Assembly (NCBI GenBank): GCA_944392545.1
Contig: CALXWW010000004.1
Span: 28,487 to 92,486 of the forward strand
Direction: 5' to 3'
Source: an uncultured Clostridia bacterium
GTDB lineage: Bacteria; Bacillota; Clostridia; TANB77; CAG-508
Length of the DNA stretch: 64,000 nt
The position numbers and the translations under genes were made by a program. How positions within the stretch are numbered: the first letter of the stretch is position 1; each line of letters opens with the position of its first letter. Below the pieces are notes generated by a model. That model ran no database searches. It had not been told where the DNA came from and saw nothing but the letters and a program-made list of their open reading frames with translations. Positions 4,440 to 58,949 of the stretch are shown here, piece by piece.

Positions 4440-6062
4440 TTATATATCTCTAAATTTTCTATATTTTACATAAAAGATTATGCTAGCAACTGATATAATT
4501 AATATTATAAATAAGCTTGTTATTATTGCACCTGTTTGTGGTATTTCACCTTTTGCTGTCGTATCATCTGTTTGTGTCGTATTTTTGTCTGTATTTGACG
4601 TTCCGTCATCTTTTCCTTGTTCATCTTTTTCATCTGTATCTTCGTCTGTATCTGGTCTCTTTAAATATTCATATTTAATATTATTTGCTATTGCATATTC
4701 TGCAATTTTTGAATCTTCATAGCAATATATTTTTAAATTATCATTATGATTTTGGAACACCGTATCCTCTGTAGGATATATATTAAATCCACCAATTTTA
4801 GTACAATTGCCCAAAATAGTTATTTTTATCAAGTCTGAACAATTATTAAAAGCATAATATTCTATTTCTTTCAATGTATCTGGAAAAGTTATTTCAACAA
4901 TTCCTGTATTTTCAAACGCACGCATTCCTATCTTTTCAACTGTATTTGGTATTGTTACTGTTGTTATCCCTTTGCAATCTTTTAATATTCCTGATGCTAT
5001 TGTCGTTGTTCCTTCTTCAAAAATAACTGAGGTTAAGTTTGTAGTACCTGTGAATACTCCTTCATTAACTTCTCCCGGTCCATCTACTAATGTCTTTGGT
5101 ATTGTTATTTCTGTTAATTCTGGACAATCTTTAAACACATTAAAACCTATTTTTTTAATTTGTCCTAAATTAACATTTGCTAGGTTAGAGCAATTTTCAA
5201 ATGCACTATATCCTATCTCTTTCACAGAACTTGGTATCGTTATTTCCGTTATACCTGTATTAGCACATAAATTTTCAGGAATTATTGTCAACCCTTCTTC
5301 TAATGTTATTTTCGTTATATTTGGATTATCTAAACATGGTTCAAGTGCACCAGTTTTTAACGTTTTTGGTATTGTTATCTCTGTTAAACTTGTACACCCT
5401 TTGAAAACTTTGAATGATATCGTTGTTATATTTCCTAAATCTACTTTATTTAAGTTTGTACAATTTTCAAATGCACTATATCCTATTTCTTTCACAGAAC
5501 TTGGTATCGTTATTTCTGTTATACCTGTATTAGCACATAAATTTTCAGGAATTATTGTTAATCCTTCTTCTAATGTTATTTTGGTTATATTTGGATTATC
5601 TAAACATGGTTCAAGCGCACTATTCTTTAACGTTTTTGGTATTGTTATTTCTGTTAAACTTGTACACCCTTTGAAAACTTTGAATGATATCGTTGTTATA
5701 TTTCCTAAATCTACTTTATTTAAGTTTGTACAGTTTTCAAATGCTTTATATCCTATTTCTTTCACAGAACTTGGTATTGTTATTCCTGTTATGCCTGTAG
5801 CAGATTTAAATGCTTCGTCTCCTATCGAGATTACTGTCTTACCATCTAATGTTGATGGTATTGCAACGTTTCCAGTTATATCTTCTGGATTTGTACATTT
5901 TAAATTTTCTATTTGATTAGACTCATTCAAATCATACTGCCAGTTTACTGTCACTCCATTTATAACAGATGTTGTAGTATATGTATCTTTTGCAAATACA
6001 TTTATACTTAATCCTACTAATAATAGAATTGTAATTAAAATAATAGATATTTTTTTCAACAT
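4440..6062 (-). CDS. Cell-surface leucine-rich-repeat (BspA-type LRR) protein with IPQTG sortase-type sorting signal
   Basis: Start at the second ATG (AGAGGAGA RBS). Signal peptide MLKKISIILITILLLV. Repeated LRR units (ITIPSSVKEIGY.AFENCTNL...). C-terminal IPQTG, then a hydrophobic stretch and a KYRKFRDI tail. Confidence 0.75.
   Translation of the reverse strand: MLKKISIILITILLLVGLSINVFAKDTYTTTSVINGVTVNWQYDLNESNQIENLKCTNPEDITGNVAIPSTLDGKTVISIGDEAFKSATGITGITIPSSVKEIGYKAFENCTNLNKVDLGNITTISFKVFKGCTSLTEITIPKTLKNSALEPCLDNPNITKITLEEGLTIIPENLCANTGITEITIPSSVKEIGYSAFENCTNLNKVDLGNITTISFKVFKGCTSLTEITIPKTLKTGALEPCLDNPNITKITLEEGLTIIPENLCANTGITEITIPSSVKEIGYSAFENCSNLANVNLGQIKKIGFNVFKDCPELTEITIPKTLVDGPGEVNEGVFTGTTNLTSVIFEEGTTTIASGILKDCKGITTVTIPNTVEKIGMRAFENTGIVEITFPDTLKEIEYYAFNNCSDLIKITILGNCTKIGGFNIYPTEDTVFQNHNDNLKIYCYEDSKIAEYAIANNIKYEYLKRPDTDEDTDEKDEQGKDDGTSNTDKNTTQTDDTTAKGEIPQTGAIITSLFIILIISVASIIFYVKYRKFRDI
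5191..5730. repeat. Two near-identical 270-bp (90-aa) tandem copies inside the LRR gene; more diverged copies flank them
   Basis: The unit caattttcaaatgcactatatcctat... recurs at 5191, 5461 and 5731 with a 270-bp period. The first two copies differ by only a few bases. Confidence 0.85.
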
Positions 6063-12122: not shown

Positions 12123-12198
12123 GGTGCCTCGAACGGGAATCGAACCAGTGACACAGGGATTTTCAGTCCCTTGCTCTACCAACTGAGCTATCGAGGCA
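12123..12198 (-). tRNA. tRNA-Phe (GAA)
   Basis: rc reads GCCTCGATAGCTCAGTTGGTAGAGCAAGGGACTGAAAATCCCTGTGTCACTGGTTCGATTCCCGTTCGAGGCACCA. Cloverleaf with anticodon GAA and encoded CCA. Confidence 0.9.
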
Positions 12199-12244
12199 AT
12201 TATTATATTATTCCTACACTCTTCTATTTTAAACAATATAAAAA

Positions 12245-12321
12245 TGGCGACCCGGAACGGGCTCGAACCGTCGACCTCTAGCGTGACAGGCTAGCGTTCT
12301 AACCAACTGAACTACCGGGCC
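12245..12321 (-). tRNA. tRNA-Asp (GTC)
   Basis: rc reads GGCCCGGTAGTTCAGTTGGTTAGAACGCTAGCCTGTCACGCTAGAGGTCGACGGTTCGAGCCCGTTCCGGGTCGCCA. Anticodon GTC. Confidence 0.9.
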
Positions 12322-12342
12322 GTATAGGAAATAATAAAAAAA

Positions 12343-12418
12343 TGGTGGGCGCAATAGGGCTCGAACCTATGACCTCCTGCTTGTAAGGCAGATGCTCTCC
12401 CAGCTGAGCTATGCGCCC
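12343..12418 (-). tRNA. tRNA-Val (TAC)
   Basis: rc reads GGGCGCATAGCTCAGCTGGGAGAGCATCTGCCTTACAAGCAGGAGGTCATAGGTTCGAGCCCTATTGCGCCCACCA. Anticodon TAC. Confidence 0.9.
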
Positions 12419-14026: not shown

Positions 14027-15508
14027 ATGGAGGAGAATTTAAAATTATATCAAGATATAGCTAATCGTACACAAGGAGATATATACGTAGGAGTAGTTGG
14101 TCCTGTAAGAACTGGTAAATCTACATTTATTAAACGATTTATGGATTTACTTGTTATACCAAATATCGATAATGAATATAAACGTGAAAGAGCCAGAGAT
14201 GAGCTTCCTCAAAGTGCCGGTGGCAGAACAATTATGACTACAGAGCCAAAATTTGTTCCTAATGAAGCTGTTGAAATCACTATAGGAAATAACTTAAAAC
14301 TAAAAACTCGTTTAGTTGACTGTGTTGGATATTTGGTAAATAATGCTATAGGATATTTAGAAGACGATATGCCTAGAATGGTTAAAACACCATGGTTTGA
14401 AGAAGAAATTCCTTTTGAGCAGGCAGCTGAAATTGGAACTAAAAAAGTTATCGAGGAACATTCTACTATAGGTATTTTAGTTACCACTGATGGAAGCATT
14501 ACAGATATTCCAAGAGAAGATTATGTAGAAGCTGAAGAAAGAGTCGTACGAGAACTAAAAGAATTAAATAAACCATTTGTAATCGTATTAAATTCAGATG
14601 ATCCTTTTTCAGATTATACTAAAAATTTAGCAAAGGAACTAGAGGAAAAATATCAAACTGCAGTTATTCCTACAGATTGCTCAAGGCTTGATATGGAAGA
14701 TATAAGTGATATTTTTGGAAAAATCCTGTATGAATTTCCTATTGAAAAGATGAACATTAATTTTCCTAAATGGGTTGATGGTCTTCAAGATTCTCATTGG
14801 TTAAAAGAAGAACTATATTCTGAAATAAAGGATGCTTTTACAGACATTCATATTTTAAAACAAGTTGACTCTGGTATATTAAGTTTACAAAACACTAAGA
14901 TAATTAATAATACAACAATCAATGAAATTAAGCTTGGCGAAGGTACAGTAAACATTACAATAAATCTATATGATGAATTATTTTATAAAGTACTTACTGA
15001 AATATCTGGAGTTGAAGTTAATAATGAAGGTGATTTATTTTCTATAATTACGTCACTCGCTGAGATCAAAAAAGAATATGATAAAATATCAAATGCATTG
15101 GAAGAAGTAAAGGCTACTGGATATGGAATTGTTACACCTTCTATCGATGAATTAATACTTGATGAACCAGAAATAATTAAACAAGGAAGTAGATTTGGAG
15201 TAAAACTTCGTGCACGTGCACCTTCTATTCACTTGATAAAAGCAGAAATTGAAACAGAAGTATCTCCTATAGTTGGAAGTGAAAAACAGTCTGAAGAATT
15301 AGTAAATTACCTACTTTCTAATTTTGAAGATGATCCTACAAAGATTTGGGAATCAAATATTTTTGGAAGAAGTTTGCATGAACTTGTAAATGAAGGCTTA
15401 CAAACTAAACTTGCCAAAATGCCAGTAGATGCTCAAAGCAAACTTCAGGAAACATTAGAAAGAATTGTAAATGAAGGCAGTGGAGGATTAATCTGTATAA
15501 TATTATAG
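14027..15508 (+). CDS. spoIVA: Stage IV sporulation protein A (spore coat morphogenetic ATPase)
   Basis: Near-canonical N-terminus MEENLKLYQDIANRTQGDIYVGVVGPVRTGKSTFIKRFMDL. 493 aa. Confidence 0.95.
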   Translation: MEENLKLYQDIANRTQGDIYVGVVGPVRTGKSTFIKRFMDLLVIPNIDNEYKRERARDELPQSAGGRTIMTTEPKFVPNEAVEITIGNNLKLKTRLVDCVGYLVNNAIGYLEDDMPRMVKTPWFEEEIPFEQAAEIGTKKVIEEHSTIGILVTTDGSITDIPREDYVEAEERVVRELKELNKPFVIVLNSDDPFSDYTKNLAKELEEKYQTAVIPTDCSRLDMEDISDIFGKILYEFPIEKMNINFPKWVDGLQDSHWLKEELYSEIKDAFTDIHILKQVDSGILSLQNTKIINNTTINEIKLGEGTVNITINLYDELFYKVLTEISGVEVNNEGDLFSIITSLAEIKKEYDKISNALEEVKATGYGIVTPSIDELILDEPEIIKQGSRFGVKLRARAPSIHLIKAEIETEVSPIVGSEKQSEELVNYLLSNFEDDPTKIWESNIFGRSLHELVNEGLQTKLAKMPVDAQSKLQETLERIVNEGSGGLICIIL

Positions 15509-16377: not shown

Positions 16378-18049
16378 ATGAAAATTGTTGATACATTTAA
16401 AAAAATATTTTTTCCAATAGAAGAACCTGTACATGACTTTTCTCTTCCCGCTGTAGATGCAAATATTTCTAGTATTCCAGATATTAGTGAGGTTAAAGAT
16501 ATATTTACTAGCATTGACGTGAATATTGAATATATAAAAGTAAAATACAATTTGTTAATAAATAGTGACATTATTCTGCGTGAGTTTTTACTCACAGCTA
16601 AAAATAAGCAATATAGAGCATTCCTTCTTTTTATCGATGGTATGACAGACATGAACTTAGTTAATGATTATGTTCTAAAACCATTAATGCTTAAAAATGC
16701 TGCTAATTCTTTTGAAAGTAATCAAGTAATTTCTGAAGCTGTAACAAATAATATTACTGTACGAAAAGTTAAAAAATTCAATATTAAAGAGCACATTTTT
16801 AATTCTTTGCTTCCTCAAAATAATGTAAAAATGCAGAAAGAATTTAAAGAAATTTTTTCTAGTGTAAATTCTGGAAATTGCATGCTTTTTGTTGACACTC
16901 TTGATATTGCTTTTGACATTGATGTAAAAGGCTTTAAAACTAGATCTATTAATAAGCCAGAAAATGAAGTAGTATTAAGGGGTCCACAAGAAGCTTTTGT
17001 TGAAAATCTACGTACAAATACTTCTCTTATTAGAAGAATTATTAATAACGAAAATTTAATTATGGAAAATATACGAGTAGGAAAGGTAAGCAAAACAAAC
17101 TGTACAGTTTGCTATATGAAAAATATTACAAATGATGATTTAATAGCAGAAGTAAAATATAGACTCAATAATATAGACATTGATTATTTAGTTTCTTCTG
17201 GTCAATTAGAGCAACTGCTTGAAGATAATACCAAGTACAGCCTACCACAAATAATTTCTACAGAAAGGCCTGATAAAACCGCCACATATCTTTTAGAAGG
17301 TAGAGTTGCTATTATAGTAAATGGTAGCCCTTATGCTTTAATAGTGCCTGCTGTTTTTATTGATTTTTTAGAATCCTCTGAGGACAAAAATATAAAATTT
17401 CAATTTGCTAACTTACTAAAAATAATAAGAATTGCATCTTTTTTAATAACATTGCTTTTACCAGGAATATATGTAGCTATAACAAGCTTTCATTTTGAGT
17501 TTATTCCTACTGAATTGTTATTTGCAATAGTTGCTTCACGTGCATCGGTACCTTTTTCAATTATCTTTGAAATTATTATAATGGAACTATCATTTGAACT
17601 TATAAGAGAGGCTGGCTTAAGAGTTCCCAGCCCTATAGGGCCTACTATAGGAATTATAGGTGCATTAATTATTGGTCAAGCTGCTGTAGATGCTGGAATT
17701 GTTAGTCCTATTTTAATAATTATAGTTGCAATAACAGGCATTACTTCTTTTGCTATTCCAGATTATTACCTGGCTTTTCACTGTAGAATTTGGCGTTTTG
17801 CATACATCGTTTTTGGATACCTTGCTCGGACTTCTTGGCATTGCATTTGTATCTTTTGTCCACCTTCTTATAGCAGCTAAAATTCAGTCATTTGGAGTAT
17901 CATATTTAGAACCATATATACCTTCTAAAGGTAAGCTTGTTAATGGAATATTTGACAAGCCTATATGGAAACGAGAAAAAAGAGATGATTTTCTTGATAC
18001 TAAAAAAGTAGACAAACAGGAACATATTAGCATGAAATGGAGATATTAA
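16378..18049 (+). pseudogene. GerA-family spore germination protein (A subunit), interrupted by a +1 frameshift at a T5 run (17810-17814)
   Basis: GerAA-like sequence (LRGPQEAF...GSPYALIVPAVFIDF...) runs in frame 1 to about 17809. It then continues in frame 2 (FLDTLLGLLGIAFVSFVHLLIAAKIQSFGVSYLEPY) to the stop at 18049. Removing one T restores a contiguous protein of about 557 aa. Confidence 0.75.
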
Positions 18050-18068
18050 ATTATAGAAAGGAGTTTAT

Positions 18069-19178
18069 ATGAATTATACAAAGCTTGGAAATTTTGAAGC
18101 TATTTGCTTAATTGTAATTTTATTTATTAATCACCTTGTTCTTAATTTACCACAAATAATTTTAGACAATTCTGCAAATGCCTCTATTTTAAATTGTATA
18201 TATATACTAGCACTTTCACTTATCTTTGTATTACTTATTGCAAAACTTTTAAAAAACTTTGCTGGTTTAGATATTATTGATATTTCTGAATATCTTGGTG
18301 GAAAATTCCTTAAAATACTAATTGGTATTCTTTGTATAATTTATTTAATTATAGAATCATCCTTTTTAGTAAGAATGTTCTCTAAGAACCTATTTCTAGC
18401 ATATTTTAATAATTATCCAATATCATTTATTATTTTTATGTTTCTGTTCATTGTGGTAGTAGCCAATTTAATGGGTAGAAGATCTATCATTAAAGTTAAT
18501 ACTATAATTGTTCCTATCGCTCTTTTTAGCATTCTATTCACATTTGTATTTGTCGCAGATTTGTTAAGAGTAGAACTCTCACTTCCTATTTTAGCTAATG
18601 GGGCAAAAAAAATATTTATAACAGGCGCAAGTAATGTTTTTGCATTTAATGGACTATTTTTCTTGTTCTTCATTTCGCCTTTGTTAGATAAAAAAGAAAA
18701 TATGCCTAAAGTTGCTTTTTCATCTACGCTTATTTGTGGTATGTTCTTACTTTTATCTATAATTGCATTAGTATTTGGGTTTTCTGACATATATTCTGTT
18801 GTTAGAATTTCTCCTCTTTACTTTATAATTATAAATAGTAAACTTACCAGCTTTTTAGAAAGGCCTGAAATAATATTTATATTTATTTGGGCTTTAGCAC
18901 TTATGTCGTTTATAAGCGTTGCTGTAATGTTTGTTTTAAACATATTTAAAAAATTAACTAATATGAAAAAAGTTCAAAATTTATCTATAACTGTATGTAC
19001 AATTATTTTTGTAGTTTCACTTCTGATTAATAATGTTTTTACATTAGAAAAAACCGCTAATTTCTTTTATAAATATGCAAGTTTAATCCTAATATTCGGA
19101 GTATTTTCTCTAATATTAATATGTGCAAATATAAAGAAAAAAATCTCCAAAAAGGACCTTATAACTTATAGAGAATAG
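18069..19178 (+). CDS. GerB-family spore germination protein (amino-acid-permease-like integral membrane subunit)
   Basis: 369 aa, about 10 TM helices. Sits between the A- and C-subunit genes. Confidence 0.75.
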   Translation: MNYTKLGNFEAICLIVILFINHLVLNLPQIILDNSANASILNCIYILALSLIFVLLIAKLLKNFAGLDIIDISEYLGGKFLKILIGILCIIYLIIESSFLVRMFSKNLFLAYFNNYPISFIIFMFLFIVVVANLMGRRSIIKVNTIIVPIALFSILFTFVFVADLLRVELSLPILANGAKKIFITGASNVFAFNGLFFLFFISPLLDKKENMPKVAFSSTLICGMFLLLSIIALVFGFSDIYSVVRISPLYFIIINSKLTSFLERPEIIFIFIWALALMSFISVAVMFVLNIFKKLTNMKKVQNLSITVCTIIFVVSLLINNVFTLEKTANFFYKYASLILIFGVFSLILICANIKKKISKKDLITYRE

Positions 19179-19197
19179 AACCCAAGGAGGATATTTT

Positions 19198-20443
19198 ATG
19201 AATTACAAAGTGCGAAAAATTTTTGCAATTTTTATACTAACTATATTAATTTTAGTAGCAACTACTAATTATTATGGGATACGTGGTATTGATAATTTAG
19301 CTTATGTTGTTGCTATTGGAGTAGATATAGGTGAAAATGAAAATTTACTACTTAGCCTCCAAATATCTTTACCTGGAGGATCAAGTAGTGAATCTAGCAG
19401 TTCTTCCCAATCCACTTCTGTTGTTGTTGAATCTGTAGAATGTCCTTCAATAAATACTGGTATTACTTTATTCAATAGCTATTTAGGAAAAGAAATTAAT
19501 CTGTCCCATTGTAAAGTTATAGTAATTTCAGAAGAATTTGCTGCAAATGGAGTTAGCGAAATTTTATATACTCTTACGAACGCAATACAATTTAGGACAA
19601 CATCTAATATTATAATAAGTAAATGCGATGCTAAATCGTATTTGGAATATTCATCTCCACTTTTGGATAAAATATCTGCTAGATATTATGAAATAGCACC
19701 CACTTCAAGTGAATACACAGGTTATACAGAAAGCATAACTTGTAATGAGTTTTTATCCTCTATAAATAGTAATTTTTCTAGTCCAGTAGCAATACTTCGG
19801 TTCAATAAATTTAGCTAATAGTCAAAAACAAAATACTTCTAACAATCCTTCGTATACAGCTGGTGAAACTCCCCTATCTCCCAAAAATGATGGTGTTGAA
19901 GCAATGGGACTTGCAGTATTTAATTCAGATAAATTAGTTGGAGAATTAACTGGATTTGACTCAATTTGTCATCTTATAATTTCTAATAAATTGAAAAACG
20001 CACAAATTAGAGTTCCTAGTCCTATTAAAGAACTTGATTTTATAGATTTATATATTGAACTAGATAAAGACACTAAAAATTCTGTGTATTTAGTAAATAG
20101 TTCTCCTTATATAACTTCTAAAATAAAAATAACTGCAAAAATGCAGTCTATGAACGAAGATATTAATTTAAAAGATACCGAATTAGTAAATAAAATTGAA
20201 ACTTCTGCAGCAGCATATTTAAAAGAACAGATATTAGATTATTTGTATAAAACTTCTAAAACTCTCCATGCAGATATTGATGGTTTTGGGTTATATGCAT
20301 TAAAATATTTTTCTACCAATATGGAATGGGATGAATATAACTGGCTTCATCATTACAAAGATTCTTATTTCAATGTAGATATTAGTGTTAATCTGCGTTC
20401 TAGTTATTTAATAACATCAACGAGCGAGGAGAGTGAAAAATAG
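19198..20443 (+). pseudogene. GerC-family germination lipoprotein, split by a +1 frameshift near 19806-19811 (AAATTT)
   Basis: N-terminal part (lipoprotein-like start, LAYVVAIGVDIGENEN) is in frame 1 and ends at 19818. The GerAC C-terminal domain (GLAVFNSDKLVGEL...) is in frame 2, which is open from 19790. Deleting one T in the A3T3 run joins them as ...RFNKLANSQKQ.... Confidence 0.7.
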
Positions 20444-40133: not shown

Positions 40134-41139
40134 TTAACTATTCTGATCTTGTATTTTTAAGTTTGGTACTGCATTTAATTCTAAATCAGATACTACTCCA
40201 GATATATATCTATAATACCCAGCTGAAGCTATCATAGCGGCATTATCGGTACACAATATTGGATCAGGATAATATATTTTATACCCGTCATTTTCTAGTT
40301 TTACAAATTGTTTTCTAATATATGAATTTGCTGATACTCCTCCTGCTAGAGCAATAGTTTTTGTTCCAAGTTCTTTTGCTGCCTTCAAACTATTTGTTAC
40401 TAATATATCTGTTACATATTTTTCAAAACTTGCACATAAGTCAGCTTTATTTATATCTGGATTTTTATGATGTAAATTTATTATAGCTGTTTTTACTCCA
40501 CTAAAGCTAAAATCTAATCCATCAATATGTGTTTTAGGTAATTCTATGTTAGGTTCCCCTTCTTTCGCTAAATTATCTACTTTTGGTCCTCCAGGATATC
40601 CAAGACCGGATAACTCTAGCCACTTTGTCGAAAGCTTCTCCTATTGCATCATCCCTAGTTTTCCCTATTATTTCAAATTTATCATAATCTTTAATATGTA
40701 CTAAATGAGTATGACCACCAGAGATTATTAAACATAAAAATGGTGGTTTTAATTCCTTATGTGTTATGTAATTAGCTGCAATATGTCCTTCTATATGATT
40801 TGTCCCCGTTAGAGGCTTATTTAAAGCATAGCTTAATCCTTTCGCATATGATACCCCTACGAGTAGCGCGCCTACTAATCCAGGTCCATATGTGCATGCT
40901 ATATTATCTATATCTTTATAAGTAATTCCTGCTTCTTTTATTGCTTGCTCTGCTACACCAGAAATGGCTTCTATATGATTTCTAGAAGCTATTTCTGGTA
41001 CAACACCTCCAAATTTTTCGTGTATCCTTATTTGTGAGTTTATAACATTCGATAAAACCTCTCTACCGTTTTTCACTACTGCTACAGAGGTTTCATCGCA
41101 ACTTGATTCAATTCCTAATGTAATTATATCTTTCATCAT
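40134..41139 (-). pseudogene. tsaD: tRNA N6-adenosine threonylcarbamoyltransferase TsaD (Kae1/Gcp), disrupted by a 1-bp insertion at about 40611
   Basis: N-terminal 178 aa ([10 protein letters not shown]...[10 protein letters not shown]) read in one frame. The remaining C-terminal portion ([18 protein letters not shown]...DNAAMIASAGYY) continues without stops in the +1 frame. The span is 1006 nt, which is 3n+1. Confidence 0.75.
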
Positions 41140-41979: not shown

Positions 41980-42771
41980 TTAAATTTCCCTATCCTCGTC
42001 AGTCTGTTTTAAATTCTCTATATTTCTTTGCAAAGTAATTCCTAATTCTTCTAGTTTTTCTTTTAGTCCTAGTATTCCTCCATTTTGTAAAGCAATCGTC
42101 CTCATTTTACTTTGTATCCTTTTTCTTAAGTTGATTGGAACTCCTCCTACCATTTCTCTTATAGCATTTAAGTCACTTTCTCTTTCTTGTAATATTCTCC
42201 TATATTCATTTAAATATTTACCAATTCCTTTTATATAGTCACTTTCGCTAAAAATGGTACTATAATTAGTTGCTTGTAAACTATTTTGTATTCTATTCAC
42301 AAAATTTATATTATATCCATAATTTGCTTTTTCAAAAGGAACAGCACTTCCGTATTTTTCACTAAATTTTCTTGCTTCTCTTTCCACTAATCCCTCTGTA
42401 TAAAAGCTTGCCATTTCTTTTTCTAGATTATCTTCCAGTCTAATTGCATCTGGTTGTATAAAATAATGAAAACATTCATGTGGTAATAATCTTTTACAAG
42501 TTCCTACTATTTCTTTATCCGACTCAAAATTTCTTACATCTGGATAAAAATGCACCTTTCCATCTCCTAAAGCTCTTCCTCCATGAGCAAGTGTATTATC
42601 TTTAAATTTACTTGTTCCTCTACTAACTATAACTACTTGCCCATTTAATAAATTATCTAGTATTTTTTTCTTTTCTTCACTCATAACATTATAATAGTCT
42701 TTTTTTATTAGTACTAAAATTCTCTTTGCTTCTTCATTTAGCTGTTCTTCTATTGAAACATAATTGGTCAT
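41980..42771 (-). CDS. Hypothetical protein with HExxH (PHECFHY) motif; putative metallopeptidase-like
   Basis: 263 aa, soluble. Single HECFH motif. No confident family assignment. Confidence 0.35.
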   Translation of the reverse strand: MTNYVSIEEQLNEEAKRILVLIKKDYYNVMSEEKKKILDNLLNGQVVIVSRGTSKFKDNTLAHGGRALGDGKVHFYPDVRNFESDKEIVGTCKRLLPHECFHYFIQPDAIRLEDNLEKEMASFYTEGLVEREARKFSEKYGSAVPFEKANYGYNINFVNRIQNSLQATNYSTIFSESDYIKGIGKYLNEYRRILQERESDLNAIREMVGGVPINLRKRIQSKMRTIALQNGGILGLKEKLEELGITLQRNIENLKQTDEDREI

Positions 42772-42869: not shown

Positions 42870-43178
42870 TTATTCCTTAAACTTTATACGGTCACTATAA
42901 TATTTTTGAAATTTCTCTTTAAACATTTCATAAACTTGTGATGCTATATAATTATCAGGTTCTGGCTTATATAATGTTGCTGACTTATCTTTTGAATGCT
43001 TCAAACAAAAAATTTCAACCTCACTATCCAAAGAATATTCCTGAAGCATAACCGCATATTCTTTATCATCATAATTAACAATATCTAATAATTCATATTT
43101 ATGAACTTGTCTTTCATTGTCATATAATTCTATTATAACTTTATCATTTGAATTATTCATAAGTTTAGTCCCTTTCAA
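42870..43178 (-). CDS. DUF1292 (UPF0473) family small protein
   Basis: About 100 aa with the ELYDNE...YELLDIVNYDDKEYAVM pattern typical of DUF1292. Overlaps the upstream large gene by 14 nt. Confidence 0.55.
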   Translation of the reverse strand: MKGTKLMNNSNDKVIIELYDNERQVHKYELLDIVNYDDKEYAVMLQEYSLDSEVEIFCLKHSKDKSATLYKPEPDNYIASQVYEMFKEKFQKYYSDRIKFKE

Positions 43179-45993
43179 TATCTATATTTTTTTCTCTGTC
43201 ATTTACGCCTATCAAATTTTCATCGTAACCGCTTGCCAAGTCACCTTTTCTAGTACCTATAAATCCTTCAAAAACAGTAACATCTCTTCTTTTCTCAGAT
43301 TCCATCTCCGAAGCTCTTTTCATACTATCACTTATATGAGCATAATATCTAGTTTTAGGTTTATTACTTCTTTGGAACGATTTAATGTCTCTTTTTTTCT
43401 TAACTTGCATAGTATCTCTTTCACTTGTACCTTTTATATTAGAATCTTTAGACGTTTTTCCATTTTTTTCCTTTTCTTCTCTTTTTCTAGCATTTTCCTT
43501 TGCCATAAGTTTTAAAAGTTTAGGTTGTCTTCTTTGAATTGATTCTTGACTTCTTGTAAACCTTAAAAACTCGTTTAAATCTGATATTTCTGATGCTGTA
43601 AGTGCTAATTGTGATGCCAATACTAGTGGATTCACCTCTTTTGTAATATATTCATATTCAATTCCTGGCTTTAAAACATATTCCCCTGGAGTTGATATGA
43701 TTTCTCTTATCGTTTTGGTAACTTTTCTTGCAACTTCATGTGTTCCATTATTTATCATTTCCGGTACTATTTCCGAAGCATCAAGCCATCCCATTGGAAT
43801 ACCATCTTGAGAAGTAGATCTCCAAATATCAATTCCTGAAATTTTACCACTTATTATCATATCACTTATCTCATCTGTCGAGAATTGTTTTCCATATTTA
43901 TCTTGTATTATTTCTTGAATCAAAGATACTATAGGTGTATCATTATCTAAAGTTTGATCTAATTTAACATCTGTTAAAACCGTAGGATCAAAACCTCTTC
44001 CGTCTGAACCAGAACATAATTTCCCATCAAGTTCAAAAGCCAAGCCTCTAAAGAAAGATGTTTTGTCTTCTATTTGATTTCCTCCATAAGCATCATATGT
44101 CAAAAGCCCACTACCTTTAGAGTATATGTCATCTAACGTTATATTTCCAACAGCTTCTTTGTCCATACCTGGTACGGTGTCTTTAATTGTCTCTTCAATC
44201 TCTCTTTCAACTTCATTTGTTTTTCTAGGTATATATTCTATTTTGTCTGGTGTTTTTGTTTGATGTGCTATTTCTCCATAAATGTATTTGCTAATATAAG
44301 CACTTATAGCACCTTTAGCTGCGATTTTAAACCCTCTTATGAATGTAGACATGTTTGCTTTATTTGCTTTATCATGTTGTGCCATTGAAACAGCATCTGT
44401 TGAAATGCTATCCACTTCCATTCTTTCTGTTTCTGCTAATCTTCCTTCTAATTTTAGTTTGCATAATTCTCTTTGTTGTATTATTTGTGTTATCTTTGCC
44501 TTTTCCTCAGAATCTTTTGTTACTTTCTCTAACGATTTTAAATCTTCTATTTCCTTTTCGTATGATTTAATCCTGTTTATAGAATCTACTATTCTATTTC
44601 TTTTTTGCATCATTTGCATACGTCTTTCATTAGTAGCTTCTTCGATGTCATGTAGGCCTGCATTTAAAATTGCTTTATTTCCTTCCTTATAATCAGTAAT
44701 TGCTTTTACTCTTGGTATAATTGCTAATTTTATAAGTTGTCCCATAGTTACTCTTGGCACCTTTTTATCTGTTTGTTGCTCTTTATTCTCACTAGCTTGT
44801 CTTTGCATTTCTTCTCTTGCTCTAGTTATAAAATAATCTTTTCTAGCATGATATCTGTGAGATGGTTTGTTTTTAAACATACCTCTAGAATGTTTTTGAG
44901 ATGTTGCAAGCATATCTTCCATAGGTGTAATTAAATATCCTTCAACGCTCACCGGACCTTTAGATTTAGATTGTGTAACTTTCATGAGGGCTCTATAAAT
45001 AGGTGATGCAACATATGTTCCTATCGCTTTATTTATTGGCGCTCTTGTATGGTTTCTAACTTCAATAAAGAAATTCATAGTTTTAAGTCCAAATTTTTGT
45101 AAATTTGATTGTTCATCAGATATTTGAGCTTTTACAGCTTTTTCTCCATCTTTCCCCATTGTTTTTAAATTCTCTGATGTATTTTGGCGAGAATTATATG
45201 TATAGTTGTTTGTTTCTATAAATTCTGTGTCCTGGTCGATTAGTGCCTGAATTGCTTTTTTTTCAAATTTTGGATCTCTAAATGTAGAAATACATTCCAT
45301 AGTTTCTTTTTTAAATTTTTCTGCTTCTTCTGGATTAATAGAATGCATCTCTTCATATCGTTGCATAATTTCTTTTATTGCAGTTTTTTTTAATCTTTGA
45401 AATTCTCTTTGATATGGTGAGAAATCTCTTTGATGCGCTCTAGATAATCTTTCAAGTCTTGTTTGATATCCATCTAATAATAGTTCATCAGAATCTTGTG
45501 ACTTTTCTTTGTAATCTTCTATTGTATATACTTGTATCTTCCTTTTTGTTCCATCCTCATTATACACATCTATCTCTTCTTGAACCACATGTGACTTAAA
45601 TCTGTCGAATGCTCTTACCCTTGTAGCCTCTGCTTCTTTATTACCATAGTATTGTTGAAGCATCGTTTGTCTTGGTTTTCTAGAATTTTCTTTATCCTGT
45701 TCTGGAATTGATTCTAATTGTGGAATATCTATTAGTGGCGGTTCATTATATATAGTTTTTACCAACTTAACTGGAGTATATGGACCATCATCAAACATTC
45801 CATCTGCACCATTATCAAATTCAACTTCTATGCTATCAATAACGCTATCAATTTCTTCTGATTTCATTCCAAGACGAGAAAGCATACCTCTTTTTACTTT
45901 TTCGTCATCATTTTCTTTGCTAGTAGGAAATGGAACATATGCTTCCATATAATCTCCATCTGCAATTACAATTTTTACTACATCCCTTTTCAT
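43165..45993 (-). CDS. Large (942 aa) cytoplasmic hypothetical protein; no recognisable domain
   Basis: Long uninterrupted ORF, no signal peptide or TM helix. Charged coiled-coil-rich sequence. Translationally coupled to the DUF1292 gene. Confidence 0.5.
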   Translation of the reverse strand: MKRDVVKIVIADGDYMEAYVPFPTSKENDDEKVKRGMLSRLGMKSEEIDSVIDSIEVEFDNGADGMFDDGPYTPVKLVKTIYNEPPLIDIPQLESIPEQDKENSRKPRQTMLQQYYGNKEAEATRVRAFDRFKSHVVQEEIDVYNEDGTKRKIQVYTIEDYKEKSQDSDELLLDGYQTRLERLSRAHQRDFSPYQREFQRLKKTAIKEIMQRYEEMHSINPEEAEKFKKETMECISTFRDPKFEKKAIQALIDQDTEFIETNNYTYNSRQNTSENLKTMGKDGEKAVKAQISDEQSNLQKFGLKTMNFFIEVRNHTRAPINKAIGTYVASPIYRALMKVTQSKSKGPVSVEGYLITPMEDMLATSQKHSRGMFKNKPSHRYHARKDYFITRAREEMQRQASENKEQQTDKKVPRVTMGQLIKLAIIPRVKAITDYKEGNKAILNAGLHDIEEATNERRMQMMQKRNRIVDSINRIKSYEKEIEDLKSLEKVTKDSEEKAKITQIIQQRELCKLKLEGRLAETERMEVDSISTDAVSMAQHDKANKANMSTFIRGFKIAAKGAISAYISKYIYGEIAHQTKTPDKIEYIPRKTNEVEREIEETIKDTVPGMDKEAVGNITLDDIYSKGSGLLTYDAYGGNQIEDKTSFFRGLAFELDGKLCSGSDGRGFDPTVLTDVKLDQTLDNDTPIVSLIQEIIQDKYGKQFSTDEISDMIISGKISGIDIWRSTSQDGIPMGWLDASEIVPEMINNGTHEVARKVTKTIREIISTPGEYVLKPGIEYEYITKEVNPLVLASQLALTASEISDLNEFLRFTRSQESIQRRQPKLLKLMAKENARKREEKEKNGKTSKDSNIKGTSERDTMQVKKKRDIKSFQRSNKPKTRYYAHISDSMKRASEMESEKRRDVTVFEGFIGTRKGDLASGYDENLIGVNDREKNIDIERD

Positions 45994-46124
45994 TTCTTTT
46001 GTTCCTTTCTCGGAATTCTATATATTAATATATGAAACTCTCAAATTTATTTTTATAATTCAATCATTCTTTCGCATTCATTTATTTTTCATAGTTTCAA
46101 GTATTAAACTTTCATTAGAACTTA

Positions 46125-47639
<1,515 letters not shown>

Positions 47640-49899: not shown

Positions 49900-52233
49900 T
49901 TATGTTTCTACATTATACTCATATACAACTATTTCCTTTGTATCAAAGTCAAATTCATTCATTTTATAATTCACATAGAAATTATCTTCTTTTACAAATT
50001 TCAAATTTAACTTATTTGTATCTAATAATACTTCTGTTGATAAGTCCATACCAACTGGTAATGTTTTATTAAAATTATCATAAAACATTATATTGGTATA
50101 AAATACTGCTGGCGTGTTTTCCTTTATGTTTATTTTACAAAGTATTAATTTATTTTTTCTACTTCTTATTTCCTGTTCTATAGCATTTTTAGGATTTATA
50201 TCAAATATATGTATTCCTTCAATACCTTTCTTAGCATTTAGGCAATATACAGACATATCATATGGTGACTGTATCTTGTTTAGTGCTTCTTTTATTAATT
50301 GTAAATAACTGTGTATATTTAAAGTATATGCTTCTATATCTGTATCCATATTTACATTAAGTACTTTATACTTATCTTTTTCTATTTCTCTATGCTTAAC
50401 ATTATTTATAGCTTTAATTTTTGTTTTATCCTCTACTAGTCCTCCAAAAATATCATAGTCTTTAGCATTAATTATCTCTATATCGTTTTCATATTCTTTC
50501 TGCAATTCTTGTAAATCTTTTTCTATTGCTGACATTATCTTTTTCTTTCTAGTTTTTGTTTTTTGGTTCTCTTCCTCTTTAAGTTCTTTATTTCCCACAA
50601 CCTCTTGTTCTTCTAGTTCTCTAAAAGAATTTGGCACAATTTTTACAGCAAACATTGCATCAGTCTCATTTTTAGAAAGTTTCCTTCTTTGCAGCTCATC
50701 CATTTTTTTCCCTAAATCTTCTAAATCCTCATCGTAATCAAAATACTTTTTCATTTTTGTTTTTTCATTTTCTTCTTCCTCTTCCGCTTGAGCTAAAGTT
50801 TGCATTTCATCTTTACTTGTAAACTTCCAAAACTCAAAAATACTCTTTTTATGTTTATCTATTTCCTTTATATACAAATCTGCATTATCTATTTTTTTAG
50901 ATAATATTTCTTTTTTAGTTTCTATTGCTTTCAAATCAAGTATTAGGTTTGAATTTTCCTTTTTTACTTCTTCTAATTTTGTACATATATTTATTAAATC
51001 TTCTATTGTATATTGTTCTTTTAACTCGTATAAGGCTTCTAATGTTTCATCTTTCTTTTCTTCATTTTGTTCTCTTTTTTCTGGCTTTTTAATAATTTTT
51101 TCATCTTTCTTTTTTCTAAAGAAATATTTTACTCTACCAAAAAATGTTTTCTTACACTCTAAAAATGTTGCTATTTGTTTTTGTCTTAACAAATATTCTT
51201 GAGTCAAGTCTTCTATTACTATTTTAAATTTTGCTAATTTTCTTTTTAATTCTTTCTGTTCTTTTTCTTCATATTTTAGTCTATCTATTTTGTCTAAATA
51301 TTCTAATTTTATATATTCAGATAATTTGTCATATTCTATTTTTGTATTATTATTCCAAAACTCAATTTCTCCGTCACTATTAAGCTTTGTAACAAATTTA
51401 TATTCTTCTCTTGCACCTGTTGCTAATATAAACATAGCTTTTAGTATTTTATATAACTCTACTGCTTTTTCTTTAGTATCTAGAGTTATGCTGTAAGTAG
51501 TCCTCATTTTCTCATAAATATTAGTTTCCCCTACTATTTTTATAAACATGTTATTATCCTTATCAAATATTTCATAAATATTTGGCCACTCTTTCGTAAA
51601 ATACCATAAGTAATTTTCCATATCATCTATTTCAGATTTACTTAAAAATTCTCCTGTATATTCCATATGACTTACTGGAACGAAAATATATCTTGGTTTT
51701 CTGGCTCTTATGTTTTTTATTTGCTCTTTTAATAAATAAAATAAAGCATTATTATCTTGTTCTTCTGTTGCCACCAACATAAAATATTTTTTTGCATAGT
51801 CTGAATAATATATTTGCCAAATAAAGTTATTTGGATATTTTACTTCAAATGGTATTTTATCATTTAATTCTTCTTGTTCTTTCGATATTTCTTCTATTCT
51901 TTCTTTATTAATAGTTGATACTAATTTTATAAATTTAGCAAATTTTTCTATATTTTCTTCTTTCTCTGAATCTAAATATTCACAAATTGGACTAGACAAT
52001 TTATATCTTTGCTTTATATCTGTTAATCTATTTTCTGGAGTTATTAATATTTCTATTTCTTTTATATTCACATATCTATATACCTTATAGATTGTATCAT
52101 CATATGATTTAGAAGGTCTAAAATTAAGTCCTTCATATTTTTTTAGGAAGGATGGTATTTTGTTTAAATTTAGACCAATATATTTTAGATTTTCTTCAAA
52201 TGTTTTTTCTGTTTCTTTTGTAATTTTAGCCAT
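49900..52233 (-). CDS. Large (777 aa) coiled-coil hypothetical protein
   Basis: Uninterrupted ORF with GGAGGG RBS and a TGaTATAAT -10 element upstream. No P-loop, TM helix or known domain. Confidence 0.5.
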   Translation of the reverse strand: MAKITKETEKTFEENLKYIGLNLNKIPSFLKKYEGLNFRPSKSYDDTIYKVYRYVNIKEIEILITPENRLTDIKQRYKLSSPICEYLDSEKEENIEKFAKFIKLVSTINKERIEEISKEQEELNDKIPFEVKYPNNFIWQIYYSDYAKKYFMLVATEEQDNNALFYLLKEQIKNIRARKPRYIFVPVSHMEYTGEFLSKSEIDDMENYLWYFTKEWPNIYEIFDKDNNMFIKIVGETNIYEKMRTTYSITLDTKEKAVELYKILKAMFILATGAREEYKFVTKLNSDGEIEFWNNNTKIEYDKLSEYIKLEYLDKIDRLKYEEKEQKELKRKLAKFKIVIEDLTQEYLLRQKQIATFLECKKTFFGRVKYFFRKKKDEKIIKKPEKREQNEEKKDETLEALYELKEQYTIEDLINICTKLEEVKKENSNLILDLKAIETKKEILSKKIDNADLYIKEIDKHKKSIFEFWKFTSKDEMQTLAQAEEEEENEKTKMKKYFDYDEDLEDLGKKMDELQRRKLSKNETDAMFAVKIVPNSFRELEEQEVVGNKELKEEENQKTKTRKKKIMSAIEKDLQELQKEYENDIEIINAKDYDIFGGLVEDKTKIKAINNVKHREIEKDKYKVLNVNMDTDIEAYTLNIHSYLQLIKEALNKIQSPYDMSVYCLNAKKGIEGIHIFDINPKNAIEQEIRSRKNKLILCKINIKENTPAVFYTNIMFYDNFNKTLPVGMDLSTEVLLDTNKLNLKFVKEDNFYVNYKMNEFDFDTKEIVVYEYNVET

Positions 52234-56060: not shown

Positions 56061-58949
56061 TTATTTATCAATATTTTTATGTTTAATATAAAAATATATA
56101 CTAAATATGGCAATAATAATCACTACTATTCCAATAGATATTATTCCTGTTTGTGGTATTGGATTTGGTGCTACTGTATTATCTATTGAATTTTCACCTG
56201 ATTCATCGTTATCTGGTGGGACTATTGGATTATTATCATCAATAATATCTTCTACATATACATTATCTTTATAAAATGATAATTTTACATTATCTGCATT
56301 TATAAGATTTGACTTGATTTGCTCTACACTTTCATCATTTACTTTAGCAATTTCTTTTAAATATATATACAACTCATCTGGATTTTTTTCACTTAATTCT
56401 TCATAGTTTATCATATCTTTAGTGCTTATCTTAAATGTCATTGTATATGTCCCATCTTCATTTTCAGTTATGCTTATATTTTTCAATTTTGTCCAATTTT
56501 CTATGTTTTCTTCAGAATCACTTTCTGATAAATAATAATAATATGTATAATCTGTATCTGCGTCTCTATCTTTTATATTATCTATCTTAAAACTCATATC
56601 TACATAATTTTCCTCATCTATATCATAATATAGATATATGCTAGCATCTGTTAAACTAGTTTTCATTTCTTCTAAATTTGATAATATTGGTCTTGCACCC
56701 TCTAATATTTCTATTTCAAATGTAGTGGTAAATCCTTCATATTCAATAGTTATATTTTGCTTTCCTATTACTTTGCTATTAAAGCCTGTTATTATAAATG
56801 ATTTTGAATTCATTTTTAAGTCTTGGATACTATCATCTGTATATGTTATTCTTACTACTCCACCTTCCAAATTTAATTCTTCTTCATTCTCCATATATGT
56901 AGTTTTAGTAGGTAATGTTAATACTTCTATGCTTCTTATCTCTTTTTCTACTACTATTGGATTTACTGTTATATTCTGCACTACTTTTTTCGTTATTCCA
57001 TCTTCTGTATATGAAATAGTTATACTTTCTTGACCATAGTATAGGTTATCTCCATTTTCTATGTTGTAATTCGTTATTTCTTTTGTACTCAAGTCACTAT
57101 ATGTAGCTAGAACTACCATTCCTGCATCATCAAAATCTTCACCTTCTGTATATATTAATTTGTTTGGAGGAGTAGTTATTTCGATTTTTGTTAATTCTGG
57201 TTCTTCTTTTTCTTCCTCTGTAAATGCTTTTATTGAAACATTTCCATGAAGAAATTCATATGTGGTTAAATCTATCCATTCTCCTTTGCTAAAGCCCTCT
57301 GTCGTCGTATAAAAGCTCTCGTTTGTGTTTACTTCTACATTTTCGTCTGTATCTTTTGTTTCTGTCATAAAGTTTTGTTCACCAGTACCTGATTGAATGC
57401 TCATTGCTACTGCAAATGTATCTCCAGTTAATTTTATAGGTTCTTTTAACATTATTGTATGATATCCAGGCTCTATTGTTATTGTATCTCCTGCCTCTAA
57501 TTCCACTTCTTGTAGATTTAATAAATCATTACTGCTAGGATTGACGTACACTTTACAGTTCACTTCTTGTATTGTAAATATGCTAACCATTGTTAATAAT
57601 TCATTTTCTTTATTACTATCTCTTGTAAATTTATTTGCTATGTATACATCCTCACTTTCTATAACCCCCACAGGAATAGAAGGATTCAATTTATTGTTTT
57701 GATATATATTATCATAATCTTTAGTTGCTGTTGCTTTTTCTATTGCATATAGTTCATTATATATATGTACGTCTTCATATGAAACATACATATATCCACT
57801 ATCTCCAATGTCTACAACTAATTTGTCTTGTTCAACTCTTACTTTTCCTTCTCCATATGAGCTCTCAAAAGCATCTATTATAAAATTATTTTCAATATCT
57901 TCTGGCGCATTCCATCCACGCTCATTGCATTGTTCTGTATATTCTGAATATATTTGTTCTTTGATTTTTATTAAATCTTCTGTTAGTTTGTCTCCCCAAG
58001 AATTTTTTACTATCCATGCACCATCATACAAAGGCTTATTCTTTTCATTAAAATTATCTTTACTATATGTGTCATCCCAACCAATTATAACTACTGCATG
58101 GTTCATTGGATACAGCCCAGCATCTGAACAATATATTGCACCCGTTTTGTTATTATATACGTCTGAAAGTAATTGTGCACCATGAATTCCAGCATATATT
58201 CCACCATAGTTACTAATTACTTGTTTCATTTTTGACATAAGTTCTGTTATCCCTATATCATCTTTGTCTTCAAACATAATGGTATCATACAATGTAGTAG
58301 TTGTGTTTTTATTTTGTATTTCTGATATATCTACATTATTCTCATTATTTTCAAATGGCATTTCTTCTTCGTCTATTGCACCCATACCATTAGTTAAATA
58401 TGATTGTGCCATATAGAATGTGCCTCCTTGATCAAAGCCTACATTATATCCATATTCATTTATTTCACCATTATTAAATACATTATTTCTTGTAGCATAG
58501 TCCATATGTCTTTCTGAAAAATCATACACATTTTCTGTTGTTCCTGCTTTATAATCTAAAAAAGCTATATTACTCTCTAAACTTCCTATGCTTGCAAAAG
58601 CCCAACATGAATTAGTTTGCATCTGGTTCTTTATAGTAACATTATTTGAAATTATATCTCTTAAATCATACTCTGAATTCAAAGCATTTTGTAACAAAAC
58701 TGGACTATTTAATATGTTATTTATGTTTCTAAAATATTGACTACTTGTTTTTGGTGAAATTACGTCATATCTACTTGGTTCTAATCTATTTTTCTTTTCC
58801 TCATCTGAAAGCGTCATATATTCTTTATATTCGTCTGTATAATCTATAGTTTTAAAATTTGTTTCTACTGCTGCATATACATTTCTACAACAAATTATTC
58901 CTATAAATATTATAAATAATATAGCTATTTTTATTATTTTACTTTTCAT
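56061..58949 (-). CDS. Cell-wall-anchored papain-like (C1A) cysteine protease with Ig-like repeat region and IPQTG sorting signal
   Basis: Signal peptide. QTNSCWAFAS catalytic Cys. HAVVIIGWD His. NSWG. Repeated Big-like domains. C-terminal NPIPQTG, then TM helix and KHKNIDK tail. 962 aa. Confidence 0.85.
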   Translation of the reverse strand: MKSKIIKIAILFIIFIGIICCRNVYAAVETNFKTIDYTDEYKEYMTLSDEEKKNRLEPSRYDVISPKTSSQYFRNINNILNSPVLLQNALNSEYDLRDIISNNVTIKNQMQTNSCWAFASIGSLESNIAFLDYKAGTTENVYDFSERHMDYATRNNVFNNGEINEYGYNVGFDQGGTFYMAQSYLTNGMGAIDEEEMPFENNENNVDISEIQNKNTTTTLYDTIMFEDKDDIGITELMSKMKQVISNYGGIYAGIHGAQLLSDVYNNKTGAIYCSDAGLYPMNHAVVIIGWDDTYSKDNFNEKNKPLYDGAWIVKNSWGDKLTEDLIKIKEQIYSEYTEQCNERGWNAPEDIENNFIIDAFESSYGEGKVRVEQDKLVVDIGDSGYMYVSYEDVHIYNELYAIEKATATKDYDNIYQNNKLNPSIPVGVIESEDVYIANKFTRDSNKENELLTMVSIFTIQEVNCKVYVNPSSNDLLNLQEVELEAGDTITIEPGYHTIMLKEPIKLTGDTFAVAMSIQSGTGEQNFMTETKDTDENVEVNTNESFYTTTEGFSKGEWIDLTTYEFLHGNVSIKAFTEEEKEEPELTKIEITTPPNKLIYTEGEDFDDAGMVVLATYSDLSTKEITNYNIENGDNLYYGQESITISYTEDGITKKVVQNITVNPIVVEKEIRSIEVLTLPTKTTYMENEEELNLEGGVVRITYTDDSIQDLKMNSKSFIITGFNSKVIGKQNITIEYEGFTTTFEIEILEGARPILSNLEEMKTSLTDASIYLYYDIDEENYVDMSFKIDNIKDRDADTDYTYYYYLSESDSEENIENWTKLKNISITENEDGTYTMTFKISTKDMINYEELSEKNPDELYIYLKEIAKVNDESVEQIKSNLINADNVKLSFYKDNVYVEDIIDDNNPIVPPDNDESGENSIDNTVAPNPIPQTGIISIGIVVIIIAIFSIYFYIKHKNIDK

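Follow-up and report, generated by a model that had tools for sequence, protein, structure and literature searches.

Proteins of the DUF1292 family (PF06949, also UPF0473; the Bacillus subtilis YrzB type) are small, and their genes usually occur in a reoM/yrzL - ruvX - DUF1292 - mltG neighbourhood, an arrangement typical of the family and not defining. A search of the literature on DUF1292, UPF0473 and YrzB returned no functional data and, as the family has no known function, membership tells nothing about mechanism. Here we describe a divergent DUF1292 gene that keeps other company. In a stretch of 64,000 nucleotides from an uncultured Clostridia bacterium of the order TANB77, family CAG-508 (GenBank assembly GCA_944392545.1, contig CALXWW010000004.1, positions 28,487 to 92,486), hereafter the window, this gene lies directly behind an open reading frame (ORF) of 942 codons. 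The large protein founds a previously undescribed family and the two genes form a conserved module.

The large protein can be set beside several described systems. Proteins of the same clade with transglutaminase-like domains (PF01841) are homologous: the C-terminal ~600 residues of these 1500-1670 residue proteins correspond in the window protein to residues 100-200 and 250-850 and, as in the latter, there is no signal peptide. Unlike these relatives, the window protein has neither a transglutaminase-like nor a leucine-rich repeat (LRR) region, and they in turn are not neighboured by DUF1292. The order of elements, long helices (416-567), a beta-rich domain (571-786) and further helices (788-842), is that of flagellin, in which terminal helices flank an inserted beta domain. 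Foldseek lists flagellar filaments among its best-placed matches, though not significantly so (E=1.4-1.7, TM-score 0.08-0.12). The gene has no flagellar or export surroundings and the sequences are not similar; the likeness is a topological resemblance only. Finally, some cytoskeletal or coat proteins of Firmicutes and Mollicutes, such as the HMW proteins of Mycoplasma and the coat morphogenetic proteins of clostridia, are large, highly charged, helix-rich, devoid of signal peptides and each confined to a single lineage. The window protein shares these general traits, but no sequence or fold relationship was found, and it is predicted to fold compactly into several domains with conserved polar motifs rather than to be of low complexity or purely coiled coil.

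Gene, lineage and known families

The original prediction had proposed a 942-residue cytoplasmic orphan downstream of lysS, without an assignable motif, that could be lineage-specific or a component of an uncharacterised machine. The ORF is present, on the minus strand (a detail the prediction left unstated), with an ATG start and a TAA stop at 43167..43165. At the 28% GC of the window, where stops make up a fraction of 0.083 of random triplets, 942 stop-free codons would arise by chance with a probability of about 6e-36. A search of 5.8 billion proteins returned 78 homologues of 25-100% identity, nearly all full length, and 1.84 billion cluster representatives, searched exhaustively with a profile, yielded 124 clusters (50% identity). 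A third search with a 45-sequence profile added no further relatives and none with a name; among the 78 homologues, likewise, none is named or carries a Pfam domain. The ratio of non-synonymous to synonymous substitution rates (dN/dS) against five orthologues is 0.2-0.3. GC content and skew are the same as those of the neighbouring genes, the gene contains no tandem repeats or composition anomaly, and no Rfam element was found near it. The length of the ORF set against chance, the 78 intact homologues, the 124 clusters, the dN/dS and the native composition establish a genuine, vertically inherited chromosomal gene under purifying selection.

The gene lysS (Pfam tRNA-synt_2, E=4e-94) does lie directly upstream on the same strand, across a gap of 131 nt. 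When the upstream regions of orthologues were aligned a conserved promoter was not found, only a shared ribosome-binding site. The absence of a signal peptide or transmembrane helix agrees with a maximum Kyte-Doolittle 19-residue mean of 1.07, and from the lack of any hydrophobic segment the protein is taken to be cytoplasmic. It is, as predicted, highly charged: 34% of residues, with K+R 16.7% and D+E 17.0%, giving a net charge near neutral.

In genomes, true family matches come from metagenome-assembled genomes (MAGs) of uncultured Clostridia or Candidatus Scatovivens, together with one 'Bacillales' MAG, all of 26-33% GC. The MAGs derive from rabbit, human, chicken, mouse, sheep and deer guts, and one human-gut metagenome contig (L001) is essentially identical to the window. 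Scatovivens belongs to the GTDB order TANB77, family CAG-508 (PMC13106387). This order, uncultured and with reduced genomes, is prevalent in the gut and has been linked to immunotherapy response (PMC11680825). The family is lineage-specific, in line with the original prediction, its known members being limited to AT-rich uncultured gut Clostridia, namely Candidatus Scatovivens and its relatives. A Flavobacterium locus (L022) picked up by a pattern scan was rejected; it encodes an RHS-repeat protein that shares only an ETNNxTYN pattern over 61 residues and gives no match to the family hidden Markov model.

The protein falls outside every known family tested. Comparison with Pfam, NCBIfam, PHROGs and PADLOC produced no significant match, a Pfam scan of 31 aligned homologues at E<=5 revealed no recurring weak family, and a profile search of PDB sequences returned coiled-coil noise only. 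A confident match to a known family, a phage structural protein for example, was the outcome that the original prediction had named as telling against it, and no such match was obtained. Size, charge and long helices give the protein a superficial resemblance to tape-measure proteins, and there is one weak PHROGs match (E=0.19). However, no relative was found in 2.9 million viral contigs, tblastn gave no match in GenBank phage and plasmid records, the best Foldseek value against BFVD is 0.2, and within 10 kb either side of the gene there are neither phage nor secretion-system genes. With its native composition also considered, the idea of a phage or mobile-element structural protein (tape measure or portal-associated) domesticated in the chromosome is effectively refuted.

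A conserved two-gene module

A DUF1292-type gene lies directly downstream of the large gene in every locus of group 1, the group that includes the window, for which downstream sequence is available. The pair recurs in at least nine distinct neighbourhoods, down to 28% identity. In the window and in L004-L012 it stands between lysS and M50-tsaD-tig-clpP-clpX, and in L024 (33% identity) between cysS and SpoIIID. Elsewhere the neighbours are a PheT-like C-terminus and a murI-like gene (L031), a divergent glyA-like gene (L033, L034), acyltransferase-like and tyrS-like genes (L013, 28% identity), PIG-L/ATP-grasp (L026) or a pfk-like gene (L042), with further distinct settings in L030 and L032. The "-like" names were read off N-terminal sequences alone. 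Identities of the large proteins and of their partners to the window copies correlate with r=0.96. The gene that follows the partner varies, being a 263-residue HExxH orphan in the window and recombinases, an amidase or recJ in other genomes, so the module consists of two genes. These data establish the large gene and its DUF1292 neighbour as a genuine module that has moved together through these neighbourhoods. The survey of distribution and context for which the original prediction had called bears out the pairing it had singled out as unusual, with neither ruvX nor mltG adjacent.

Two candidate extensions were discarded: the 263-residue ORF as a third member of the module, because its slot varies between genomes, and a DUF1292-like domain within the large protein (hhalign probability 1%). 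We note also that aminoacyl-tRNA synthetase genes adjoin the module or lie close to it in four settings that otherwise differ, which could be chance in housekeeping-dense genomes.

The partner is probably a divergent DUF1292 protein. The window copy matches PF06949 with E=1.2e-4 and 23.3 bits, just below the gathering score of 24 bits. Each of the 12 partners from orthologous loci reaches E<=0.01, the strongest with 37 bits and 6.3e-9. Many database homologues carry a precomputed PF06949 match and some copies are labelled YrzB (UPF0473 family). The protein stands alone, has no hydrophobic segment and at 96 residues is of the size expected of these cytoplasmic proteins (~75-100 residues, and ~90-100 for the YrzB type). 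It differs from the canonical members in its score, in following a 830-1060 residue orphan in every case, and in the neighbourhood: the canonical gene order is absent, with the 942-residue orphan and lysS upstream and the 263-residue orphan and an M50 peptidase downstream. The partner subfamily is a divergent, clade-specific branch of DUF1292. Its AlphaFold2 model (predicted local distance difference test score, pLDDT, 86.8) comprises a five-stranded sheet and a C-terminal helix, and a Foldseek comparison with the PDB yielded only weak chromo/Tudor/SH3-like barrel rows (best E 0.48).

At the junction, a 14-nt overlap between the two genes had been proposed. This would require initiation at TTG 43178, ahead of which there is no Shine-Dalgarno sequence. 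The alternative, ATG 43160, is placed 8 nt after AAAGGGA and 4 nt after the TAA stop of the large ORF, is the choice of gene callers on independent assemblies, and is where the alignment of orthologous partners begins. The overlap is probably wrong and the window genes are tightly spaced, not overlapping. Across orthologues the spacing ranges from about -11 to +21 nt and is mostly 1-6 nt; the tight coupling that had been predicted therefore stands, and only its geometry does not.

Predicted structure of the large protein

An AlphaFold2 model built with a 31-sequence alignment (A1) is confident, with a mean pLDDT of 81.4 and pTM of 0.64. The long helices anticipated from the sequence lie between residues 296 and 567, one of them being 57 residues in length. 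Foldseek placed no significant neighbour beside the model in the PDB (best E 1.4) or BFVD. The fold may be new.

The small acidic domain at the N-terminus, residues 4-81 in the model, occurs only in closer orthologues, while distant ones carry a coiled coil or Pro-rich inserts at that point. A disordered acidic linker follows it in the model. The conserved part of the chain begins with domain A and continues into a basic helical core and stalk, marked by the motifs ETNNYxYN, NLxTLGKxGEK, HRYxARKDYF, EGNxAxLNAG and TDAxSxxxHDKANK. An acidic beta-rich domain follows, and then two helices and a basic tail with the motif DLNEFLRFTRS ... F(E)GFxGxKxxD ... YDEN, conserved across subfamilies. The tail has little secondary structure yet its pLDDT is 81-94, on which ground it probably packs against the body of the protein. 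Charge is segregated, with isoelectric points (pI) of 10.4 for residues 296-432, 9.6 for the tail, 4.4 for the N-terminal domain and 4.5 for the beta domain.

Invariant across 45 diverse members are M110, G116, D254, N262, G279, G282, N306, G324, H378, R379, D532, H539, W735 and R810, which are placed in the motifs given above for the core. The polar residues among these that are placed in loops (D254, N262, H378-R379, D532, H539 and R810) suggest a ligand-binding or catalytic site and not a passive coiled coil.

Diverged relatives

A second group of paralogues (25-28% identity, 1000-1250 residues) has an additional N-terminal coiled coil. These genes are placed between trmFO and rpsL (rpsL-rpsG-fusA-tuf) alongside other clade-specific orphans, and both groups can occur in one MAG (L007 group 1, L019 group 2). 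The conserved orphan cluster comprises a protein of 750-1690 residues, a highly charged protein of 380-660 residues, the group-2 paralogue itself, a 446-475 residue protein with one hydrophobic segment and, two genes beyond the tail-like ORF described next, a 76-88 residue protein that is weakly DUF1292-like (hhalign 46%). Behind each group-2 gene is an ORF of 69-87 residues that repeats the tail motif as a protein of its own, LLDxYENxRKTKT ... Y.FDAGxTGDxKxD. That this ORF might be a split-off tail was considered and rejected, since alignment shows that group-2 proteins keep their own.

Might the family serve translation? A role in connection with translation, tRNA or RNA, in which a Lys/Arg-rich tail would bind RNA or ribosomes with the help of DUF1292, would suit the basic core and tail, the position of group 2 between the tRNA-modification gene trmFO and ribosomal protein genes, a release factor near the relative P0096, and the recurrence of lysS, cysS, a PheT-like C-terminus and a tyrS-like gene as neighbours of the module. 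The canonical DUF1292 gene adjoins ruvX; RuvX (YrrK) is implicated in 16S rRNA maturation, and the operon in B. subtilis follows alaS. However, in reduced, housekeeping-rich genomes with other orphans interspersed such adjacency may be incidental, the module elsewhere has unrelated neighbours (glyA-like, pfk-like, PIG-L), and no RNA-binding domain was detected in Pfam scans. We consider this role distinctly unlikely.

In nine of 34 long relatives (1500-1670 residues) the family core is preceded by one or two transglutaminase-like domains; none of the nine has a signal peptide. Of the two domains in P0110 one is degenerate and the other keeps its Cys-His-Asp triad intact, and the protein also has an LRR-like stretch. 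At L044 the next gene encodes another Transglut_core protein, of 852 residues. Neither the window protein nor any of the 31 members of alignment A1 has the domain. Some more distant proteins (1100-1700 residues) share only domain A and have a hydrophobic segment; one is in the same rpsL-adjacent position. The 777- and 263-residue orphans of the window were tested for membership of the large family or the group-2 cluster families and are not related.

The transglutaminase-like relatives bring the spore to mind. The window encodes SpoIVA and a germinant-receptor operon (GerA, spore permease and GerAC), which mark the organism as an endospore former. A coat or exosporium protein, morphogenetic or structural, would be synthesised in the cytoplasm of the mother cell before its assembly on the forespore, so accounting for the missing signal peptide, while the relatives with transglutaminase-like domains would cross-link or process the coat. 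In favour are the GerA/GerB/GerC operon and SpoIVA of the host, SpoIIID near the L024 orthologue, the P0110 triad with its LRR-like stretch, and the family's own character: coat morphogenetic proteins are typically lineage-specific, large and highly charged, as it is. Against this, there is no likeness to coat families in Pfam or NCBIfam and no conserved sporulation-type promoter; the upstream regions cannot be aligned and give a sigma-70-like sequence as the sole match. The gene is set among vegetative housekeeping genes, and since Firmicutes that do not sporulate, Enterococcus among them, have DUF1292 proteins too, the partner is not specific to spores. A coat role is, in our judgement, unlikely.

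The same fusions, to a papain-fold domain and an LRR-like stretch, could be read as those of an effector or toxin secreted by a non-classical route, for which the small gene would supply a chaperone or immunity protein, as in a polymorphic-toxin or type VII secretion-like pair. The arrangement of the two genes, with a small acidic product directly behind a large one, and a variable slot just downstream with recombinases in L005 and L011, would be in keeping. Yet no LXG, WXG or toxin domain matched at E<=5 in any of the 31 aligned members, Rhs features are absent, and PADLOC models gave no match to the large protein, its partner or two long relatives. The C-terminus is conserved rather than polymorphic, synteny is vertical and dN/dS is 0.2-0.3, the partner is from a broadly conserved housekeeping family and no secretion system is encoded nearby. 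Such a pair is highly improbable.

A proposed complex

We judge it slightly better than an even proposition that the large protein and its partner function as a cytoplasmic complex, in which the acidic small subunit sits on a basic surface or tail and the large subunit has a functional site that is conserved and a tail that docks on the subunit itself. Both products would be made together and act in stoichiometric amounts. The large subunit would form a folded body of acidic N-terminal domain, domain A, basic helical core with stalk and acidic beta domain, whose conserved loops would gather the invariant polar residues into a ligand-binding or catalytic site, and its basic C-terminal tail would dock back on the body by way of the short conserved motif. 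The DUF1292 protein would most likely be an accessory subunit, or one that serves assembly, bound to a basic surface or to the tail, given the complementarity of charge (pI 10.4 for the core and 9.6 for the tail, 4.9 for the partner).

Several observations weigh against this proposal. Conserved adjacency establishes co-inheritance and probably co-expression, but not binding. Group-2 paralogues and the transglutaminase-fused relatives have no clearly detectable DUF1292 neighbour, from which it follows that the core is not strictly dependent on DUF1292. The putative polar site is drawn from conservation in the alignment. In addition, some orthologues are interrupted, L006 by an in-frame TAA where the others have the codon of an invariant leucine and L011 by a frameshift, and these speak against strict essentiality. 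In both cases the two halves remain open and conserved, and the 636-residue product of the downstream L006 piece is recorded from four contigs.

A wider and rather doubtful possibility extends to the whole family. Group 1 with DUF1292, the group-2 cluster with its tail-mimicking mini-protein and the transglutaminase/LRR forms would together represent the core of a new TANB77-specific cytoplasmic assembly, driven by docking of the tail on the same or a neighbouring subunit, with stand-alone tails and DUF1292 capping or regulating it.

Other features of the window

Feature coordinates are collected in Table 1. The 263-residue orphan behind the DUF1292 gene has an HExxH motif (HECFH) with TEGLVE downstream, and from this may be a small metallopeptidase-like protein. 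In L005 and L011 its slot holds serine recombinases, in L006 a secreted HEMGH protein, in L010 an amidase and in L012 recJ. Further along, tsaD is split by a frameshift into ORFs of 188 and 84 residues, the missing TsaD sequence being readable in another frame. The same split is present in the independent assemblies L001 and L002 and a different one in L010; tsaD is intact in L006-L008.

A 777-residue orphan, 37% charged and with no transmembrane segment, lies between a small RelA/SpoT-domain gene and recN, and has no match in Pfam, NCBIfam or PHROG. On its translation, a 962-residue protein resembles a large cysteine peptidase of the cell surface: it has a signal-like segment at the N-terminus, the papain-type active-site motif CWAF and a hydrophobic anchor at the C-terminus. 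The sole Rfam matches in the window are three consecutive tRNA genes.

Table 1. Coordinates of the module, its domains, related loci and other window features.
Feature	Locus	Position	Strand	Remark
942-residue ORF	window	43165..45993	minus	includes stop codon; group 1 founding member of new TANB77-restricted family
DUF1292 partner	window	42870..43160	minus	96 residues, acidic (pI 4.9), divergent DUF1292/YrzB family; directly downstream
Shine-Dalgarno GAAAGGAA	window	46009..46002	minus	8 nt ahead of ATG 45993
Sigma-70-like TTGAGA-18-TAGAAT	window	46044..46015	minus	match no better than chance; not conserved in orthologues
Shine-Dalgarno AAAGGGA of DUF1292 gene	window	43175..43169	minus	inside last codons of large ORF
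Residues 1-81, small acidic alpha/beta N-terminal domain	window	45751..45993	minus	AlphaFold2 secondary structure, alignment A1; pI 4.4
Residues 106-260, conserved alpha/beta domain A	window	45214..45678	minus	motifs MLxQYYG, FKSH, LERLSRAxxGDxSxY
Residues 261-567, loop-rich basic helical core and stalk	window	44293..45213	minus	conserved; alignments A1, A8; pLDDT mostly 86-96
Residues 568-787, acidic beta-rich domain between helices	window	43633..44292	minus	571-786 in the model; pI 4.5; W735 invariant
Residues 788-942, two helices (788-842) and basic C-terminal tail (843-942)	window	43168..43632	minus	AlphaFold2, alignment
lysS	window	46125..47639	minus	aminoacyl-tRNA synthetase neighbour
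cysS	L024	4306..5841		aminoacyl-tRNA synthetase neighbour
PheT-like	L031	42..392		aminoacyl-tRNA synthetase neighbour
tyrS-like	L013	10880..12094		aminoacyl-tRNA synthetase neighbour
In-frame TAA	L006	8814..8816		in place of invariant Leu275 codon (TTA)
Frameshift in orthologue	L011	~5369..5432
Tail-copy ORF	L017	3792..4004		after each group-2 paralogue; also L014, L016, L019, L020, L037-L040
Clade-specific orphan cluster	L014	205..11939		around trmFO, upstream of rpsL; also L016, L020, L025, L028
Transglutaminase-fused relatives	L023, L044			P0096, P0098, P0104, P0110 and others
SpoIVA	window	14027..15508	plus
GerA / spore permease / GerAC operon	window	16378..20443	plus	germinant receptor
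263-residue HExxH orphan	window	41980..42771	minus	right after DUF1292 gene
tsaD	window	40134..41139	minus	frameshift near 40573..40600
777-residue orphan	window	49900..52233	minus
962-residue protein	window	56061..58949	minus
Three tRNA genes	window	12125..12418	minus

Significance

Orphan families of this kind are common in metagenomes, and the immediate value of the present one is as a lead rather than a discovery. Were the proposed TANB77 assembly to prove true, it would give a first functional handle on DUF1292/YrzB, as a small adaptor for large basic partners. The strict pairing itself supplies a candidate partner for a protein family that is widespread in Firmicutes. A conserved large protein that is both kept and duplicated in the small genomes of TANB77 is likely to be important for the biology of the clade.

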